Positions 3,157-28,182 of a stretch of DNA of 64,000 nt are shown here, in pieces. Position numbers and translations under genes: made by a program. The notes below the pieces were generated by a model. It ran no database searches, was not told the DNA's origin, and saw only the letters and a program-made list of their open reading frames with translations. The stretch's first letter is position 1. Each line of letters opens with the position of its first letter. Origin of the DNA: Escherichia phage PE37; the sequence record NC_054929.1; one strand, given 5' to 3'.

Positions 3157-3181
3157 TTTCAAAAATTTTTTTCACAAAAAG

Positions 3182-3211
3182 GTTTACAACCAAAGCATAC
3201 TGTGGTACTAT
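3182..3211 (+). promoter_or_regulatory. early promoter upstream of motA
   Basis: GTTTAC 3182-3187, 18-bp spacer, TGGTACTAT 3203-3211. Confidence 0.6.
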
Positions 3212-3252
3212 ACAACTATCAACTACTGATACAGAATTACGGAGATTAGAAA

Positions 3253-3888
3253 ATGTCTAAAGTAACTTACATCATCAAAGCTTCTAACGATGTTCTGAAT
3301 GAAAAAACTGCTGCGATTTTAATTACTATTGCTAAGAAAGATTTCATTACAGCCGCAGAAGTTCGTGAGGTGCATCCAGATTTAGGTAACGCAGTAGTTA
3401 ATAGTAATATTGGGGTATTGATTAAAAAAGGCCTGGTGGAGAAATCTGGTGATGGATTAATCATTACTGGTGAAGCTCAGGATATTATTTCAAATGCAGC
3501 AACTTTATATGCACAGGAAAATGCTCCGGAACTGCTGAAAAAACGAGCAACTCGTAAAGCTCGCGAGATTACTTCCGATATGGAAGAAGATAAAGACCTC
3601 ATGTTAAAACTTTTAGATGAAAATGGATTTGTTCTTAAAAAGGTTGAAACTTATCGTAGTAATTATCTTGCCATTTTAGAAAAACGTACTTACGGAATTC
3701 GCAATTTTGAAATTAACAACAATGGAAATATGCGAATTTTTGGATACAAAATGATGGAACATCATATTCAGAAATTTACTGATATCGGAATGTCATGTAA
3801 AATCGCTAAAAACGGTAATGTGTATCTTGACATTAAACGCTCGGCAGAAAACATTGAAGCTGTAATCACTGTAGCATCTGAACTGTGA
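3253..3888 (+). CDS. motA: middle transcription activator MotA
   Basis: 211 aa; sequence matches T4 MotA. Confidence 0.9.
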   Translation: MSKVTYIIKASNDVLNEKTAAILITIAKKDFITAAEVREVHPDLGNAVVNSNIGVLIKKGLVEKSGDGLIITGEAQDIISNAATLYAQENAPELLKKRATRKAREITSDMEEDKDLMLKLLDENGFVLKKVETYRSNYLAILEKRTYGIRNFEINNNGNMRIFGYKMMEHHIQKFTDIGMSCKIAKNGNVYLDIKRSAENIEAVITVASEL

Positions 3889-4228: not shown

Positions 4229-4686
4229 AAACTTTTAAAGAACGTTTAGCTCTGTTAGATAAAGCTTTGTTACGTGAGACTCCGGAAAGTCTGGCTGCTA
4301 AATTAGCTTCTTACGGCGGTGAATATACAGAACAAAATGTTTTAGATGAAGTTCCTGAAATCTGTTGGCAGACTGCATATTGGGATGAAAATCAAAAGTA
4401 TCAACGACGAATTGTCTGTGCAGCCAACCGTTTTAAATTAAAAGATGGACGAACTCTTATTATTCCAGGTGCTCGTCATTATTCTAAAGATATGGCAGAA
4501 GTTTTAGATGTAGTTAAACCTCAATTAGTTACTCAACAAGTTTGTGATGATGACCAAGGGTTTATTGACCAATATAGTAATTATTGGACACGTGAAGAAG
4601 CAATGATTATTGCAACTTACGCTGGACAAGTACGTATTGAACGTGGTGGTAGTGAAAAAGAACTTTACTCTGAGGACCTTTACTAA
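4225..4686 (+). CDS. hypothetical protein (arn.3-like position)
   Basis: ATGA-coupled ORF. Confidence 0.5.
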
Positions 4687-4982
4687 TGAATATTAAAAAG
4701 TTTCAAATCGATGGAATTATGAATCAAATCCAGGCGTTGGAATATGCCAATAAAATGATGTCAACTAATTGGGGAATTTATACCAATGAGCCGGCATTTA
4801 AATTTTGTGATATGGAATTTGCCAAAAAGCTTGTAGGAAAAGATTATGTATGTCCATTTAGTTCCCCAATAAATGGAATGCTAAAACCTGCTTTACGCGA
4901 TCTTTATATTGCGATGAACGAAGAAATGATAAAAGAATTAAAACGTCAACTGAAGGTGATTCAATTTGGCCAGGGAAATTAA
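4686..4982 (+). CDS. hypothetical protein (arn.2-like position)
   Basis: ATG overlapping upstream stop. Confidence 0.5.
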   Translation: MNIKKFQIDGIMNQIQALEYANKMMSTNWGIYTNEPAFKFCDMEFAKKLVGKDYVCPFSSPINGMLKPALRDLYIAMNEEMIKELKRQLKVIQFGQGN

Positions 4983-18778: not shown

Positions 18779-19411
18779 ATGAATATAGTATATTGGTTTA
18801 CATTTGAAGACCGTGTCAAAAATAAGACTCCACCATACTACTATATCGGTAGTAAATTAAATTGCTCATTTGAGAACGGAATAATATATGACTCTTCCGG
18901 AAAGGAATACTGGAGCTCATGTAAACAAAAAAGATTTTTGAATGCGCTAATGCTTCAAAAACCGAGCGTTAAAATAATTCAAATTGATGATGACTTGGAT
19001 GTTATTGAAGCAGAACGAAAATACCAACTTGAAGTAAATGCCAGAGATAATCCAGACTATTTTAATCTGGTATATGCTGGTGGTGGATTTGGTGTGAGTG
19101 GTGAAACTCATCCAGCCAAAGACCCGGAAGTTAGAGAGCATATGAGATTGGCTAATTATATGAACCGTGACGATTTTAGACCTTGGAAAACATCACGAGC
19201 TAATATAGAGTCTTGGAAATTATCTCATATTGCTTACGAGAATTATGTGTTATTATTATCCTCTAATCTGTACGGTAAAACTCCTGGATGGCGAAGAGTT
19301 AAAGGTAATATAAATATAACTGATACAACTGCTAAATCGATGGTAAAGTATTTCAACTCAGGTTGGATACCTCTCGAAGACCCAGAGTATTGCAAATTAT
19401 GCCAGCTATGA
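18779..19411 (+). CDS. segG: GIY-YIG homing endonuclease, SegG-like
   Basis: N-terminal IVYWF...YYIGS motif plus downstream EAERKYQLEVN (catalytic Glu/Asn context as in I-TevI); free-standing between 59 and 32. Confidence 0.7.
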   Translation: MNIVYWFTFEDRVKNKTPPYYYIGSKLNCSFENGIIYDSSGKEYWSSCKQKRFLNALMLQKPSVKIIQIDDDLDVIEAERKYQLEVNARDNPDYFNLVYAGGGFGVSGETHPAKDPEVREHMRLANYMNRDDFRPWKTSRANIESWKLSHIAYENYVLLLSSNLYGKTPGWRRVKGNINITDTTAKSMVKYFNSGWIPLEDPEYCKLCQL

Positions 19412-19470: not shown

Positions 19471-20376
19471 ATGTTTAAACGTAAATCTACTGCTGAACTT
19501 GCTGCACAAATGGCTAAACTGAATGGCAATAAAGGTTTTTCTTCTGAAGATAAAGGCGAGTGGAAACTGAAACTCGATAATGCGGGTAACGGTCAAGCAG
19601 TAATTCGTTTTCTTCCGTCTAAAAATGATGAACAAGCACCATTCGCAATTCTTGTAAATCACGGTTTCAAGAAAAATGGTAAATGGTATATTGAAACATG
19701 TTCATCTACCCACGGTGATTACGATTCTTGCCCAGTATGTCAGTACATCAGTAAAAATGATTTGTACAACACTGACAATAAAGAGTACGGTCTTGTTAAA
19801 CGTAAAACTTCTTACTGGGCTAACATTCTTGTAGTAAAAGACCCAGCTGCTCCAGAAAATGAAGGTAAAGTATTTAAATACCGTTTCGGTAAGAAAATCT
19901 GGGATAAAATCAATGCAATGATTGCAGTTGATGTTGAAATGGGTGAAACTCCGGTTGATGTAACTTGTCCGTGGGAAGGTGCTAACTTTGTACTGAAAGT
20001 TAAACAAGTTTCTGGTTTTAGTAACTACGACGAATCTAAATTCCTGAATCAATCTGCGATTCCAAACATTGATGATGAATCTTTCCAGAAAGAACTGTTC
20101 GAACAAATGGTTGACCTTTCTGAAATGACTTCTAAAGATAAATTCAAATCGTTTGAAGAACTGAGCACTAAGTTCAGTCAAGTTATGGGAACTGCTGCTA
20201 TGGGTGGTGCCGCAGCAACTGCTGCTAAGAAAGCCGATAAAGTTGCTGATGATTTGGATGCATTCAATGTTGATGACTTCAAAACAAAAACTGAAGATGA
20301 TTTTATGAGCTCAAGCTCTGGCAGTTCATCTAGTGCTGATGACACGGACCTGGATGACCTTTTGAATGACCTTTAA
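19471..20376 (+). CDS. 32: single-stranded DNA-binding protein gp32
   Basis: 301 aa; begins [23 protein letters not shown]; acidic C-terminus. Confidence 0.95.
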
Positions 20377-20398
20377 TAGATTATATTACTAATTAATT

Positions 20399-20424
20399 GG
20401 GGACCCTAGAGGTCCCCTTTTTTA
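20399..20424 (+). terminator. intrinsic terminator after gene 32
   Basis: GGGGACC-CTAGA-GGTCCCC followed by TTTTTT. Confidence 0.7.
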
Positions 20425-20448
20425 TTTCAAAAATTTTTTCACAGAACG

Positions 20449-20478
20449 GTTTACATCCTTGTCCTTCCATGGTACTAT
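20449..20478 (+). promoter_or_regulatory. early promoter
   Basis: GTTTAC, 18-bp spacer, TGGTACTAT; shares an 18-mer with the motA promoter. Confidence 0.6.
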
Positions 20479-20521
20479 ACAACTATCAGCAATACTGCTG
20501 ACGATTAAAGAGGAAAACAAT

Positions 20522-20749
20522 ATGGCTAAAGTTGATATTGACATCGTTGATTTTGAATATATTGAAGAAATTATTCGTAATCGTTATCCTGAACTTAGTA
20601 TCACAAGTGTACAAGATTCTAAGTTTTGGAGCATTCAAATCGTTATTGAAGGTCCTTTAGAAGTTCTTGAGCGGTTTATGGCTAATGAATATTGTGATGG
20701 TATGGATGCTGAAGACACAGAATTTTACATGGGATTGATTGAACAATAA
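20522..20749 (+). CDS. hypothetical protein (75 aa)
   Basis: ATG 20522 with AAAGAGGAAAAC SD (track start is TTG at 20459). Confidence 0.5.
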
Positions 20750-20793
20750 TTATCAAGGGGCTATTACAGCCCCGTTAAAATGAGGAAATCAAA

Positions 20794-21180
20794 ATGGAAG
20801 TTGGAAAAACTTATATCATTAACCCTTTATTTAAAAATGACTTTGCTAACGAGTGCCGTTGCAATGTAATGATGCTAAATTTAATAGAGAAGCACGGACC
20901 TAGTTTTGTTGTAGATGAAATGGAAAGTGATGATTGTGCCGGTGAATGTGTGGTACATGTAACTATGGAAGATGGCACTGAATACATGGCGAGTGGCCCA
21001 CTTGAGACGTATTTTGAGATTTACTCTGAAGAATTCAAATACTTTACTGAGGTAACTTTAGAAAAGCCTCAATCCGCTAATGAAGGTATAGTTTCTGGCG
21101 TAACAAAAATTCACTGCATTGTTGACGAAAACAATGTAGATGAAATCATTGAACTTTTGCGAAAAACTTTCAAAAAGTAG
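20794..21180 (+). CDS. hypothetical acidic protein (128 aa)
   Basis: ORF with GAGGAAA SD. Confidence 0.5.
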   Translation: MEVGKTYIINPLFKNDFANECRCNVMMLNLIEKHGPSFVVDEMESDDCAGECVVHVTMEDGTEYMASGPLETYFEIYSEEFKYFTEVTLEKPQSANEGIVSGVTKIHCIVDENNVDEIIELLRKTFKK

Positions 21181-21209
21181 TTTACAGAAGGGTAGTAGTG
21201 TGATACTAT
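21180..21209 (+). promoter_or_regulatory. early promoter
   Basis: GTTTAC 21180-21185, 18-bp spacer, TGATACTAT; hairpin 21190-21214 encloses the -10. Confidence 0.5.
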
Positions 21210-21235
21210 TACCCTATCAACTTAAGGAGAATAAA

Positions 21236-21478
21236 ATGAGATTACAACGTCAGAGCATCAAAGATTCAGAAGTTAGAGGTAAATGGTATTTTAATATCAT
21301 CGGTAAAGATTCTGAACTTGTTGAAAAAGCTGAACATCTTTTACGTGACATGGGGTGGGAAGATGAATGCGATGGGTGTCCGCTTTATGAAGATGGAGAA
21401 AGCGCAGGATTCTGGATTTACCATTCTGATGTTGATCAGTTTAAAGCTGATTGGAAAATTGTGAAAAAGTCTGTTTGA
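21236..21478 (+). CDS. hypothetical protein (80 aa)
   Basis: ATG 21236 with AAGGAGA SD; track ORF 21140 start lies inside upstream gene. Confidence 0.5.
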   Translation: MRLQRQSIKDSEVRGKWYFNIIGKDSELVEKAEHLLRDMGWEDECDGCPLYEDGESAGFWIYHSDVDQFKADWKIVKKSV

Positions 21479-21488
21479 GGAAAATATT

Positions 21489-21848
21489 ATGTCTGACATT
21501 CATGTAGCTGGAATTGCTCGAGTAAGTATTCGTTGCCAACTTAAAACTGCGCCCGGGACGGCTTATATTAATTTATCACACGACCTATGTTCTAGTGAAA
21601 GACCATTAACTGGTGTAATTACGTTTTACGCTGGAGTTGGCGGAAACGAATTTACTGTAGGCGAATTTGTTGGCTGTAAATTAAAAGTTCAGAAGAATGT
21701 GTTAGAACTTTTTAGCGATCTTTATGGTGATAGTGATGAAGTTTTTGATGAAATCGCGCAAGCAGTTAACAAAGGAATGGTAACTTTAGTTAAAATGATT
21801 AACTCTATCGGATATGCTCCTGACCCTTTTCGATGGGAGATAATATAA
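21489..21848 (+). CDS. hypothetical protein (119 aa)
   Basis: ORF with GAGGAAAA SD. Confidence 0.5.
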   Translation: MSDIHVAGIARVSIRCQLKTAPGTAYINLSHDLCSSERPLTGVITFYAGVGGNEFTVGEFVGCKLKVQKNVLELFSDLYGDSDEVFDEIAQAVNKGMVTLVKMINSIGYAPDPFRWEII

Positions 21849-21940
21849 TTTTTGTATTTGAGTTTATGAATGATGAATTCTATTATGCAATGCTTTAAAA
21901 ATTGCATAGTCTTGATTTAAATGAATTTGAGGAAAATATA

Positions 21941-22860
<920 letters not shown>

Positions 22861-22879
22861 AATAACGCGCGGCGGAAAT

Positions 22880-23227
22880 ATGAATTTTAATTATTACCCT
22901 ATTCTATTAGAAAAAGATGAGAAACAGCCAAAGTGGCAGGGTCCTCAGTTTATTAAAGGTGTCTATCAATTAGTAGTTCCTAAAGACAAGATTTATAGCA
23001 GTTGTTTCACTGAATCCGCTTGTAGTATTTTCGGTAATAGTTCTCCGTATTGGAATTTTGACATAAAGCTGGATAGAAATATCGATATTTGGTTGAAAGC
23101 TATGGATATTGGTAATATCACGTTTGATGAGAATAATTATCATATTATTGGTCGCTTTTCCAAACGCGGTAAAGAATTATATTTCACGCCTGAAATTGAG
23201 AGAAAATTTGATGCTAAACTGTATTGA
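22880..23227 (+). CDS. hypothetical protein (115 aa) inserted between frd and td
   Basis: clean ORF; no nuclease or other motif recognised; frd and td overlap directly in T4 as I recall. Confidence 0.5.
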   Translation: MNFNYYPILLEKDEKQPKWQGPQFIKGVYQLVVPKDKIYSSCFTESACSIFGNSSPYWNFDIKLDRNIDIWLKAMDIGNITFDENNYHIIGRFSKRGKELYFTPEIERKFDAKLY

Positions 23228-23272
23228 TTATTTAGCTTCATAAAATGTATTATAATTTATATAAGGTACTAA

Positions 23273-24133
23273 ATGAAACAATACCAAGATTTAATTAAAG
23301 ACATTTTTGAAAATGGCTATGAAACCGATGACCGAACGGGCACAGGAACAATTGCTCTGTTCGGTACTAAATTGCGTTGGGATTTAACTAAAGGTTTTCC
23401 TGCAGTAACAACTAAAAAGCTCGCCTGGAATGCATGCATTGCTGAGCTAATATGGTTTTTATCAGGAAGCACAAATGTCAATGATTTGCGATTAATTCAA
23501 CATGATTCATTAATTCAAGGCAAAACAGTCTGGGATGAAAATTACGAAAATCAAGCAAAAGATTTAGGATATCATAGCGGTGAACTTGGTCCAATTTATG
23601 GAAAACAGTGGCGTGATTTTGGCGGTGTAGATCAAATTATAGAAGTTATTGATCGTATTAAAAAACTGCCAAATGATAGGCGTCAAATTGTTTCTGCGTG
23701 GAATCCAGCTGAACTTAAATATATGGCATTACCGCCTTGTCATATGTTCTATCAGTTTAATGTGCGTAATGGCTATTTAGATTTGCAGTGGTATCAACGT
23801 TCGGTAGATGTTTTCCTCGGTCTTCCATTTAATATTGCATCATATGCTACGTTAGTTCATATTGTAGCTAAGATGTGTAATCTTATTCCGGGAGATTTGA
23901 TATTTTCTGGTGGTAATACTCATATCTATATGAATCACGTAGAACAATGTAAAGAAATTTTATGTCGTGAACCTATGGATTTATGCGAATTACAATTAAA
24001 ATTTCCAGATGAATTTGATGAATGGAACACAGAATCGCAGGTATTTTGGTTGAGTCAATTTGCAAAGCCTCATAATTTTGTTCTTAACAACTATGAATCA
24101 CATCCTCCTATTAAAGGAAAGATGGCGGTGTAA
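23273..24133 (+). CDS. td: thymidylate synthase (uninterrupted, no intron)
   Basis: 286 aa continuous ORF; ThyA motifs including active-site PCH. Confidence 0.95.
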
Positions 24134-24153
24134 TTTTATTATTGCGAGGATAT

Positions 24154-24417
24154 ATGATTTTACGATTTAAAGATACTTCTGGTGTAGTTCTTTTTACACT
24201 TCCTAATCCAAGTGAGTTAGAAGTTCCAGGACCAAATCAGCCTATTATCATTTATGGCAAAAAATATTATACCCATAAAATGACTCGTGAGTATTTTGAT
24301 AATAAAATTTCCACAGTTAAAACTTCTTCTGACTGTTACTACGATATTACTGTTTTAACGGAAGAACAATATGAACACTTACAACCGCGCAGGCCGTATA
24401 TGCCGAGTAGTGAATAA
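24154..24417 (+). CDS. hypothetical protein (87 aa)
   Basis: ATG 24154 after GAGGA (track TTG at 24142). Confidence 0.45.
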
Positions 24418-24697
24418 ATATAAATCCGACTTTGATGTTAATATTCACCGTGGTACATTTTGGGGAAATTACGTCGGTAAAGATGCTGGCAGCCGGGAGG
24501 CTGCCATTGAATTATTCAAAAAAGATTTTATACGTCGAATTAAATCCGGAGAAATAACTAAAGCACATTTAGAGCCTTTACGTGGAATGAGGCTAGGATG
24601 CACATGTAAACCAAAGCCGTGTCATGGTGATATAATAGCTCATATAGTTAACCGATTGTTTAAAGACGATTTTCAAGTTGAGGACTTATGCAATTAA
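24371..24697 (+). CDS. hypothetical protein (108 aa) with [11 protein letters not shown] motif
   Basis: ORF overlapping upstream ORF by 47 nt in another frame; ATGA-type coupling into nrdA. Confidence 0.45.
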
Positions 24698-26952
24698 TTA
24701 ATGTTATCAAAAGTAGTGGTGTTTCTCAGAGCTTTGACCCACAAAAAATTATTAAAGTTTTATCTTGGGCAGCTGAAGGAACATCTGTAGATCCTTATGA
24801 ATTATATGAAAATATTAAATCATATCTCCGTGATGGAATGACAACTGATGATATTCAGACTATTGTCATTAAGGCCGCTGCGAATTCTATTTCGGTTGAA
24901 GAACCTGATTATCAATATGTAGCTGCACGCTGTTTAATGTTCGCTCTTCGTAAGCATGTTTATGGGCAGTATGAACCACGTTCATTTATTGACCATATTT
25001 CTTACTGTGTAAATGAAGGTAAATACGACCCTGAATTGTTGTCAAAATATTCAGCAGAAGAAATTACATTTTTAGAATCAAAAATTAAGCACGAGCGGGA
25101 TATGGAATTTACTTATTCCGGGGCGATGCAATTAAAAGAAAAATATCTCGTTAAAGACAAAACCACCGGTCAAATTTATGAAACTCCACAGTTTGCATTT
25201 ATGACTATTGGAATGGCATTGCATCAAGATGAACCTGTTGATAGATTAAAACATGTTATTCGTTTTTATGAAGCAGTATCCACTCGACAGATTTCACTGC
25301 CAACTCCTATTATGGCTGGTTGCCGTACTCCAACTCGGCAGTTTAGTTCATGCGTTGTTATTGAGGCAGGTGATTCATTAAAGTCTATCAATAAGGCTTC
25401 CGCTTCAATTGTTGAATATATCTCTAAACGCGCTGGAATTGGTATTAACGTTGGTATGATTCGTGCTGAAGGTTCTAAGATTGGCATGGGTGAAGTACGC
25501 CATACTGGTGTTATTCCTTTTTGGAAACATTTTCAGACTGCTGTTAAATCATGTTCACAGGGTGGAATTCGTGGCGGCGCTGCTACTGCTTATTATCCTA
25601 TTTGGCATTTGGAAGTTGAAAATCTTCTTGTTTTGAAAAATAACAAAGGCGTAGAAGAAAACCGCATTCGTCATATGGATTATGGTGTTCAACTGAATGA
25701 TTTGATGATGGAACGATTCGGAAAGAACGATTACATTACTTTGTTCAGTCCGCATGAAATGGGTGGAGAGCTTTATTATTCTTATTTTAAAGACCAAGAC
25801 CGTTTCCGTGAATTATACGAAGCAGCAGAAAAAGACCCTAATATTCGTAAAAAGCGCATTAAAGCCCGTGAACTATTTGAATTGCTCATGACTGAACGCT
25901 CAGGAACAGCAAGGATTTATGTACAGTTCATTGATAATACGAATAACTATACTCCGTTTATTCGTGAAAAGGCACCTATTCGTCAGAGTAACTTGTGCTG
26001 TGAAATTGCTATTCCAACGAATGACGTGAATAGTCCTGATGCTGAAATTGGATTGTGTACGTTATCTGCGTTTGTGTTGGATAACTTCGATTGGCAAGAC
26101 CAAGATAAAATTAATGAATTAGCAGAAGTTCAAGTTCGTGCTCTTGATAATCTTTTGGATTACCAAGGATATCCAGTTCCTGAAGCAGAAAAAGCTAAAA
26201 AGCGTCGTAACCTCGGTATAGGTGTTACTAACTATGCAGCTTGGCTGGCAAGTAACTTTGCTTCTTATGAAGATGCTAACGATTTAACACATGAACTATT
26301 TGAGAGATTACAGTATGGACTCATTAAAGCATCCATTAAGCTCGCCAAAGAAAAAGGACCTTGCGAATATTATTCAGACACTCGTTGGTCTCGAGGCGAA
26401 TTACCTATCGACTGGTACAATAAAAAGATTGACCAAATCGCAGCTCCAAAATACGTTTGTGACTGGTCGTCGCTGCGGGAAGACCTTAAGCTCTTTGGCA
26501 TCCGTAATAGCACACTATCAGCACTTATGCCATGTGAGTCATCTTCCCAAGTTTCTAACAGTACAAACGGTATCGAGCCTCCACGTGGACCAGTCTCTGT
26601 TAAAGAATCAAAAGAGGGCTCCTTTAATCAAGTCGTGCCCAATATTGAGCATAACATAGACCTCTATGATTATACATGGAAATTAGCTAAGAAAGGTAAT
26701 AAACCTTATCTTACGCAGGTAGCTATTATGCTGAAATGGGTTTGTCAATCAGCTTCGGCGAATACATATTATGACCCGCAGATTTTTCCAAAAGGAAAGG
26801 TTCCAATGTCAATAATGATTGATGACATGTTATACGGATGGTATTATGGCATTAAAAATTTCTATTATCATAATACCCGCGATGGTTCTGGTACTGATGA
26901 TTATGAAATAGAAACTCCAAAAGCTGAAGATTGTTCATCCTGTAAATTATGA
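24688..26952 (+). CDS. nrdA: aerobic ribonucleotide reductase large subunit
   Basis: 754 aa; class Ia RNR alpha sequence; T4 NrdA length. Confidence 0.95.
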   Translation: MQLINVIKSSGVSQSFDPQKIIKVLSWAAEGTSVDPYELYENIKSYLRDGMTTDDIQTIVIKAAANSISVEEPDYQYVAARCLMFALRKHVYGQYEPRSFIDHISYCVNEGKYDPELLSKYSAEEITFLESKIKHERDMEFTYSGAMQLKEKYLVKDKTTGQIYETPQFAFMTIGMALHQDEPVDRLKHVIRFYEAVSTRQISLPTPIMAGCRTPTRQFSSCVVIEAGDSLKSINKASASIVEYISKRAGIGINVGMIRAEGSKIGMGEVRHTGVIPFWKHFQTAVKSCSQGGIRGGAATAYYPIWHLEVENLLVLKNNKGVEENRIRHMDYGVQLNDLMMERFGKNDYITLFSPHEMGGELYYSYFKDQDRFRELYEAAEKDPNIRKKRIKARELFELLMTERSGTARIYVQFIDNTNNYTPFIREKAPIRQSNLCCEIAIPTNDVNSPDAEIGLCTLSAFVLDNFDWQDQDKINELAEVQVRALDNLLDYQGYPVPEAEKAKKRRNLGIGVTNYAAWLASNFASYEDANDLTHELFERLQYGLIKASIKLAKEKGPCEYYSDTRWSRGELPIDWYNKKIDQIAAPKYVCDWSSLREDLKLFGIRNSTLSALMPCESSSQVSNSTNGIEPPRGPVSVKESKEGSFNQVVPNIEHNIDLYDYTWKLAKKGNKPYLTQVAIMLKWVCQSASANTYYDPQIFPKGKVPMSIMIDDMLYGWYYGIKNFYYHNTRDGSGTDDYEIETPKAEDCSSCKL

Positions 26953-27003: not shown

Positions 27004-28182
27004 ATGAGCACAGTTTTTAATACAAATCCAGTTGATGTTTTAAAAGAACCTATGTTTTTTGGTTCAGGTCTTGGTATTGCGCGTTATGATATTCAACGTC
27101 ATAAAGTTTTTGAAGATTTAACCGAAAAGCAGTTGTCATTTTTCTGGCGTCCTGAAGAAGTAAACTTAATGATGGATGCTGCACAGTTTAATAAGCTTCC
27201 TCAGTACCAGCAAAATATTTTTACTAATAACCTGAAGTATCAATCACTTTTAGATAGCATTCAGGGCCGCGCGCCATCTGCCGTACTTATGTCATTAATT
27301 TCAGACCCAAGCCTTGATACATGGGTTGCTACATGGACTTTTAGTGAAACTATTCACAGTCGTTCATATACTCATATTATGCGAAATCTTTATACTGATC
27401 CGTCAAAGGTATTTGATGAAATTGTATTAGATGAAGCTATTATGAAACGTGCTGAATCCATTGGACGTTATTATGATGATGTTCTGATTAAAACTCGTTA
27501 TTGGGAAAACGCTAAAGCTGATATCGAATACCAAAAAGAAATTAATGCAGACGAAGACGTTATTGAAGATGCTATTGAGCATGAGACATATTGGAAGCAT
27601 GAGCTAATGAAATCTCTTTACCTCTGTTTGCATGTAATCAACGCATTGGAAGCTATTCGTTTTTATGTATCTTTCGCATGTACCTTTAACTTCCATAAGA
27701 ACATGGAAATCATGGAAGGTAATGCCAAGATTATGAAGTTCATTGCACGTGATGAGCAGCTTCATCTTAAAGGTACACAATATATTATTCGTCAACTTCA
27801 ATCTGGTACTGATGGCGATGAATGGGTTAAAATTGCTCAAGAGTGCGAGCAAGAAGCAGTTGATATTTTCATGGAAGTTAACCGCCAAGAAAAAGATTGG
27901 GCAGTTCATTTATTTAAAGATGGCGATGTTCCTGGATTAAATACAAATAGCATGTGGAGCTTTATTGATTACTTAACTGTATCTCGTATGAAACAGTGTG
28001 GTCTTCCATGCCCAATTACCGATGCTCCGGTTAAACATCCATATCCTTGGATTCGTGAATATCTTAATTCTGATAATGTTCAATCAGCGCCACAAGAAGT
28101 AGAACTGTCATCTTATCTTGTTGCACAGATTGATAATGATGTTGATGATAAAGTTATGATGAGTTTTAAAAAATACTTTTAA
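27004..28182 (+). CDS. nrdB: aerobic ribonucleotide reductase small subunit (uninterrupted)
   Basis: 392 aa continuous ORF; diiron-tyrosyl radical protein family. Confidence 0.95.
   Translation: MSTVFNTNPVDVLKEPMFFGSGLGIARYDIQRHKVFEDLTEKQLSFFWRPEEVNLMMDAAQFNKLPQYQQNIFTNNLKYQSLLDSIQGRAPSAVLMSLISDPSLDTWVATWTFSETIHSRSYTHIMRNLYTDPSKVFDEIVLDEAIMKRAESIGRYYDDVLIKTRYWENAKADIEYQKEINADEDVIEDAIEHETYWKHELMKSLYLCLHVINALEAIRFYVSFACTFNFHKNMEIMEGNAKIMKFIARDEQLHLKGTQYIIRQLQSGTDGDEWVKIAQECEQEAVDIFMEVNRQEKDWAVHLFKDGDVPGLNTNSMWSFIDYLTVSRMKQCGLPCPITDAPVKHPYPWIREYLNSDNVQSAPQEVELSSYLVAQIDNDVDDKVMMSFKKYF

Follow-up and report, generated by a model that had tools for sequence, protein, structure and literature searches.

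An RB32ORF229c-family gene between frd and td in Escherichia phage PE37, probably an old resident of T4-like phages that T4 has lost

The frd–td interval and its surroundings

The window analysed here, a 64,000-nt stretch of Escherichia phage PE37 (NC_054929.1), carries an ATG-initiated open reading frame (ORF) of 115 codons between the genes for dihydrofolate reductase (frd) and thymidylate synthase (td), as an earlier note on this DNA had described (Table 1). The frd region was 98.8% identical at the nucleotide level to the annotated frd–td regions of wV7, RB51, and others. The exact 115-aa protein is already present in GenBank (Escherichia phage PE37, ANH49638.1) and sits in a cluster of 154 Tequatrovirus proteins; the gene is annotated as 'RB32ORF229c hypothetical protein' in RB51 (ACP31150.1) and RB32, and as 'hypothetical protein' in T2 and T6. 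The protein matched the PHROG 1928 profile over residues 4–111 of 115 (E = 3.1e-36), a full-length match that places it in this family, which has neither a Pfam nor an NCBIfam model and whose PHROG function label is 'unknown'. Literature searches on the gene and on the frd–td gene pair returned no paper mentioning RB32ORF229c, and the frd–td locus is not mentioned in an accessory-gene screen (PMC12373910). The frd–td gene is an ordinary protein-coding gene that has been annotated before as uncharacterised.

Table 1. Coordinates of the features discussed; positions are those of the window unless another locus is named
Feature	Position	Strand	Description
segG	18779-19411		between gene 59 and gene 32; 210 aa, 99% identical to T4 SegG (209/210 residues)
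frd.1	21140-21478		DUF5417
DUF7247 protein gene	21489-21848		PHROG 3566; between frd.1 and frd; function unknown
113-aa protein gene	21941-22282		PHROG 8592; between frd.1 and frd; function unknown
frd	22279..22860	+	dihydrofolate reductase, upstream neighbour; 193 aa; stop TGA 22858-22860; from the ORF listing
9-bp direct repeat TAAATGAAA, left copy	22854..22862	+	spans the frd stop codon
G+C-rich spacer AATAACGCGCGGCGGAAAT	22861..22879	+	19 nt, between the frd stop and the 115-aa ORF
RB32ORF229c-family gene	22880..23227	+	PHROG 1928; ATG start, 115 codons; 13.7 kDa beta-rich protein
A+T-rich spacer	23228..23272	+	45 nt; promoter-like element and td Shine-Dalgarno
MotA-box-like AGCTTCA	23234-23240	+	in the 45-nt spacer
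-10-like TATAAT or TAATTT	23251-23256 or 23253-23258	+	in the 45-nt spacer
td Shine-Dalgarno AAGG	23263-23266	+	
9-bp direct repeat TAAATGAAA, right copy	23270..23278	+	spans the td start codon
td	23273..24133	+	thymidylate synthase, downstream neighbour; 286 aa, single uninterrupted frame without intron
nrdA	24688-26952		
nrdB	27004-28182		392 codons, uninterrupted; 51 nt after nrdA
gene B	ACG-C40 locus 758-964; two other loci 4670-4879, 3173-3379		68-aa PHROG 9550 occupant

Homologues of the 115-aa protein were found by tblastn in 562 of 50,697 phage records, all of them full length. Pairwise dN/dS values in unsaturated comparisons ranged from 0.035 to 0.13 (phage Lutter, 0.035; Mosigvirus SF, 0.072; two metagenomic copies of the family compared with each other, 0.127), pointing to strong purifying selection. 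Given these homologues and dN/dS values, the ORF is not a chance frame. The absence of a known domain and the weak Shine-Dalgarno sequence (GGCGGA) could be taken to mean a spurious ORF inside a non-coding spacer, but amino-acid conservation reaching down to ~30% identity, an excess of synonymous changes (dN/dS 0.04–0.13), and a confident AlphaFold2 (AF2) model leave this reading a negligible probability; we consider it refuted by the model, dN/dS, and conservation across 35 family members.

The gene is flanked by two spacers of different character. The 19-nt upstream spacer contains the Shine-Dalgarno-like GGCGGA (22871–22876) and is missing from Mosigvirus SF and NHEP29 as well as from other genera, where the ORF start overlaps the frd stop. 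In Mosigvirus Shf125875 (locus 230–290), the annotated frd is ~12 codons longer at its 3′ end, reading through the homologue of this spacer to overlap the ORF start by 11 nt. The downstream spacer is A+T-rich and contains TATAAT, in agreement with the earlier note; REP1, SF, and NHEP29 lack ~30 nt of it, among them the promoter-like element. The Tequatrovirus allele therefore differs twice, by the 19-nt spacer upstream and by ~30 extra nucleotides downstream. The pattern GCTTYA-N10-13-TANNNT, which resembles a MotA-dependent middle promoter, had 22 matches in the whole window, mainly on the + strand, compared with 8.9 expected, and none of 100 shuffles reached 22; one match (23235–23258) lies 5′ of td. 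We take AGCTTCA followed by TATAAT or TAATTT (23234–23258) to fit the T4 middle-promoter consensus. A promoter is placed at the corresponding spot in the annotation of vB_EcoM_Lutter, and a putative td-proximal middle promoter in the 45-nt spacer is plausible. The late-promoter consensus TATAAATA was not found in the spacer, the only terminator-like hairpin in 20300–24800 followed gene 32 (none lay in either spacer), and the predicted RNA structures of the two spacers were not significant (z = −1.8 and +1.2).

Regarding the surroundings, neither the group I intron nor the I-TevI gene, which interrupt td in T4, T6, Lutter, and others, is present in the td of the window. Because segG is present and td is uninterrupted, the phage carries SegG but not I-TevI; the window SegG gave no Pfam match at E ≤ 0.001. 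The window has two genes between frd.1 and frd, an interval in which the T4 annotation has none. The nrdA–nrdB interval of the window is also without the mobE, nrdB.1, and nrdB intron/I-TevIII of T4.

State of the junction across T4-like phages

The earlier note had stated that frd and td overlap directly in T4 and had regarded the intervening ORF as extra. The overlap is indeed found in NC_000866, where it spans 4 nt (ATGA), and the window exceeds T4 by 416 bp at this position. No member of the 115-aa family was recovered when the complete T4 genome was searched in six frames with the family profile (best E = 1.2). Comparison of the interval with T4, T2, T6, and RB genomes, which the earlier note had proposed, placed the gene in T2, T6, and many RB phages and confirmed its absence from T4.

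Three states of the junction occur in Tequatrovirus-type records: it holds the 115-aa gene (hereafter A), an unrelated 68-aa gene (B), or nothing. State A was observed in ~361 records at ≥90% identity, corresponding to ~70% of Tequatrovirus-type records and including T2, T6, and many RB phages; T2, T6, RB3, RB5, RB6, RB68, wV7, AR1, and hundreds of newer isolates carry a copy at 95–99% identity. Gene B alone was present in ~135 records (~26%), e.g., ACG-C40, whereas the empty, T4-like state was limited to roughly 17–35 of ~513 records (~5%). The gene flagged as extra is accordingly the norm across T4-like phages, and T4, not PE37, is the exception. Gene B (MSNKLKVKDVP..., PHROG 9550) has homologues at 79% identity in Klebsiella T4-like phages and at ~42% in unrelated phages of ~150 kb.

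Outside Tequatrovirus-type records, diverged homologues of A (30–47% identity) lie directly 3′ of frd in at least nine Tevenvirinae genera. The genera with a homologue just after frd include Jiaodavirus, Kanagawavirus, Moonvirus, Gelderlandvirus, Winklervirus, Karamvirus, and Tegunavirus, and the same arrangement was found in an unclassified Klebsiella phage and in two metagenomic T4-like contigs. The location right after frd and before td is thus shared by the window and the loci of the nine genera. Profile searches revealed two tandem family members at most diverged loci, A and a diverged paralogue, A′, each matching PHROG 1928, and at some loci gene B stands just before td as a third, unrelated gene. 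The common cross-genus order is frd-A-A′-(B)-td, each of these genes beginning with an ATG that overlaps the preceding gene's end or lies near it. Several junctions within the cassette are ATGA start/stop overlaps, and the rest are short overlaps of another kind. The start of A overlaps the frd stop in several genera, often as ATGA, and A is positioned for translational coupling to frd in most genera. In Enterobacter phage Entb_45 (locus 2002–2516), frd is annotated as two pseudogene fragments, and the downstream A, A′, and B are intact.

Recombination also moves the gene between phages. The Mosigvirus SF copy of the ORF shares 90% nucleotide identity with that of the window, compared with 62% for frd and 75% for td, and because the ORF is far more similar than its flanks, we read SF as one sign of lateral exchange. 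Another Mosigvirus, moskry, has an empty frd–td junction.

Resident gene or insertion

The earlier note interpreted the ORF as an insertion of mobile or hypervariable cargo. The part of this claim that stands is the variability: the junction is polymorphic, with three alleles, and SF bears the mark of lateral exchange. Insertion itself is opposed by synteny in at least nine genera, the apparent coupling to frd, purifying selection, and carriage by ~70% of Tequatrovirus-type records. The same note had named, as grounds for abandoning its view, the presence of this ORF at this position in most T-even genomes with a known function, and this holds for the position but not for a known function. On comparative grounds, the evidence favours the 115-aa gene being an old resident of the Tevenvirinae frd–td interval over an insertion.

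The 9-bp direct repeat TAAATGAAA that flanks the gene might seem to speak for insertion. It occurs 11 times in the window compared with 3.6 expected and is therefore a generic 'TAA-ATG-AAA' gene-start context; moreover, a flanking repeat alone cannot tell the direction of an indel. Recombination between the ATGAA starts of A and td gives the T4 junction GTATATAAATGAAACAATA exactly, and this junction can be reproduced from either a window-type or an SF-type allele. The T4 state would most simply be explained if A and td, whose start contexts TAAATGAA[A] are near-identical, had undergone a precise deletion between these two contexts, an event that would also create the famous frd/td ATGA overlap of T4. 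Since TAAATGAAA is generic and the start-context recombination gives GTATATAAATGAAACAATA exactly, we infer that T4 is most likely a microhomology deletion derivative and not the ancestral state. Some Tequatrovirus phages would then have kept A (as the window, T2, T6, and most of the RB phages did) and others B, with T4 having kept neither. We consider it highly probable that the 115-aa gene is a real, conserved, resident gene which T4 deleted. This corrects a T4-centred view, in that the textbook frd/td overlap would be a rare, derived state (~5% of Tequatrovirus-type records), and the junction would offer a clean example of how recurring ATGA contexts allow the deletion of a whole gene with translational coupling left intact.

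Two further ideas regarding the direction and the vehicle of the indel were considered. The mini-frame ATG-AAA-TAA at the frd stop could be viewed as a relic td start, implying insertion into a T4-like junction; this idea was dropped because in Mosigvirus Shf125875 the homologous stretch is read as part of frd, lengthening the protein at its C-terminus. PeSL cassettes are mobile regulatory elements of T4-type phages (PMC2839356, PMC4122927), and their hallmark, an early promoter and a stable stem-loop flanking an indel, was not found at frd–td.

Several BASEL-collection records label the gene 'putative homing endonuclease', which raises the possibility of a free-standing homing endonuclease, or a self-mobile cassette, that entered the frd–td interval and created a 9-bp target-site duplication. 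The site between two conserved genes, like those of seg and mob genes, the direct repeat on both sides, the BASEL label, and the RB51 note 'flanked by 9 bp repeat' are all in line with such an origin. The repeat is, however, the generic start context described above, and no terminal inverted repeats of note surround the gene. No family member matches GIY-YIG, HNH, LAGLIDADG, or any other Pfam nuclease family, and the earlier note's remark that these three motifs are lacking proved correct and extends to Pfam and NCBIfam domains of any kind. No acidic residue, His, or Cys is invariant in 35 members; the protein, at 115 aa, is about half the size of Seg and Mob proteins (210 aa for the window SegG); its AF2 model has no structural match to any nuclease; and members of the family are found at this position in distant genera too. 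A homing-endonuclease origin is therefore very improbable, and we reject it in view of the missing catalytic domain, catalytic residues, and nuclease fold. A transposon-like cassette was likewise rejected, as the flanking 9-mer is generic, terminal inverted repeats are not convincing, and no mobility enzyme is present. The 'putative homing endonuclease' label lacks support and should not be carried forward.

The predicted protein, its possible roles, and known systems

The 115-aa protein has a pI of 7.7 (family range 6.5–9.4) and contains 20 aromatic residues. Structure prediction and profile searches, as suggested in the earlier note, yielded a confident model and no functional lead. The AF2 model, built from a 14-sequence alignment (mean pLDDT 86.5, pTM 0.80), is a small beta-rich domain with strands at 6–12, 27–34, 38–40, 48–50, 62–64, 80–82, 86–96, and 99–104 and a helix at 68–76. 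Among 35 diverse A and A′ sequences, Q16, W19, G27, G91, K95, and G97 are invariant and Y29, F93, and F102 nearly so, and the family signature Q-x-x-W ... G-x-Y ... G-R-F-x-K-x-G, within a single domain of ~95–120 aa, is present in the window protein. The lack of any invariant D, E, H, or C in these 35 sequences speaks for a binding module rather than a metal-dependent enzyme.

In database searches, all family members that were checked or carried a name came from T4-like phages. The window protein had no Pfam match even at E ≤ 10, and 14 family members gave only four marginal and unrelated Pfam matches; NCBIfam and PADLOC (defence proteins) gave no match, and sequence searches of the PDB, with the single sequence and with a profile, returned nothing. 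A fold search of the AF2 model against solved structures found no significant match, the resemblance to OB folds being weak, and BFVD yielded only proteins from T4-like phages, all of them uncharacterised. When 1.84 billion representative proteins were searched exhaustively, ~21 real clusters were recovered, all of 95–116 aa and with no cellular homologues, all those checked or named being from T4-like phages. Likewise, the final profile search returned single-domain proteins only (113–119 aa, no fusions), the named ones belonging to T4-like phages. Two hits of the homologue search (P0029 and P0032) were discarded as repetitive false positives. A 195-aa prediction on a Klebsiella phage contig of 100,456 bp (P0014) joins an unrelated N-terminal part of 150 aa to the last ~45 residues of the family; this fusion is probably not real but the product of misassembly or faulty gene calling.

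We propose that the 115-aa gene would be transcribed and translated with frd in an early/middle nucleotide-metabolism operon, and that its 13.7 kDa product may be a non-catalytic, beta-rich, possibly OB-like binding module, the gene being neither a nuclease nor a mobile element. Q16, W19, G27, G91, K95, and G97, together with Y29, F93, and F102, would form a ligand-binding face, whose putative ligand may be a nucleic acid or a partner protein, and the protein would serve the phage dNTP-synthesis/replication programme as a dispensable accessory. As a composite explanation, an old resident gene lost in T4 and encoding a non-catalytic binding protein that is expressed together with Frd and Td is the account we lean towards with modest confidence. 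Its functional component taken by itself, a putative non-catalytic binding protein made with Frd and Td, is a tentative suggestion that we hold as possible rather than probable.

A different role would be that of an accessory counter-defence or host-takeover protein, i.e., a small, early product that inactivates a host factor by binding it, such as a defence system sensing or depleting nucleotides, and that is kept or lost depending on the hosts met. Small early proteins of a comparable kind are common among the characterised T4 counter-defence proteins. The gene is dispensable, being absent from T4 and ~30% of Tequatrovirus-type records, its slot has three states, and the SF copy, far closer than its flanks, suggests lateral exchange; furthermore, the family comprises ~21 clusters of short proteins with no fusions and no cellular homologues, and its fold has no solved relative. 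On the other hand, the same position in at least nine genera on different hosts, combined with low dN/dS, is unlike a fast arms-race locus, the start of A overlaps the frd stop in several genera, the pI is neutral to basic and not acidic as in DNA-mimic anti-restriction proteins, and the literature searches gave no paper on the gene. We regard a counter-defence role as somewhat unlikely. Its specific form as a DNA-mimic anti-restriction protein of the Ocr/ArdA/Arn type, which requires a strongly acidic protein, was rejected on the basis of the pI values.

A still less probable and more speculative proposal is that the A/A′ pair represents an uncharacterised small beta-barrel (OB-like) fold family limited to T4-like phages and serving as an accessory of the thymidylate/folate module. 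If this were true, the proteins might bind Frd, Td, or their mRNA and thereby tune the dTMP supply, or alternatively might neutralise a host system attacking phage nucleotide pools, and the deletion in T4 would have hidden the function from sixty years of genetics. The family is a reasonable target for functional work, because it is conserved, under purifying selection, often duplicated, and confidently folded, with no solved structural relative; it is not an exceptional one, since T-even genomes contain many other conserved genes of this uncharacterised sort.

Compared with known systems, the gene shares with the T4 Seg (GIY-YIG) and Mob (HNH) endonuclease genes an intergenic location between conserved genes and a variable presence among T-even phages, whereas its product differs in having no catalytic motif, half the size, no conserved acidic residue or His, and no structural match. 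Among solved folds, the AF2 model weakly resembles OB-fold domains (HIN, RPA/Teb1, the RecO N-domain, and S1). An LSm-like family of T4 early proteins, GoF/MotB.1/Frd.2, has been described (PMC12152347), whose members are likewise small, uncharacterised, beta-rich, early Tevenvirinae proteins, and frd.2 lies just 1.7 kb upstream in the window. The AF2 model of the 115-aa protein has no N-terminal helix, and kinship with the neighbouring Frd.2 was rejected by profile–profile comparison (hhalign probability 0.3%). With RB32ORF229c and PHROG 1928, in contrast, there is no difference: the window protein is a member of this family and identical to the PE37 protein, the copies in T2, T6, RB phages, and wV7 are 96–99% identical to it, and the frd–td position and the flanking 9-bp repeat are the same in the window and in the known copies.
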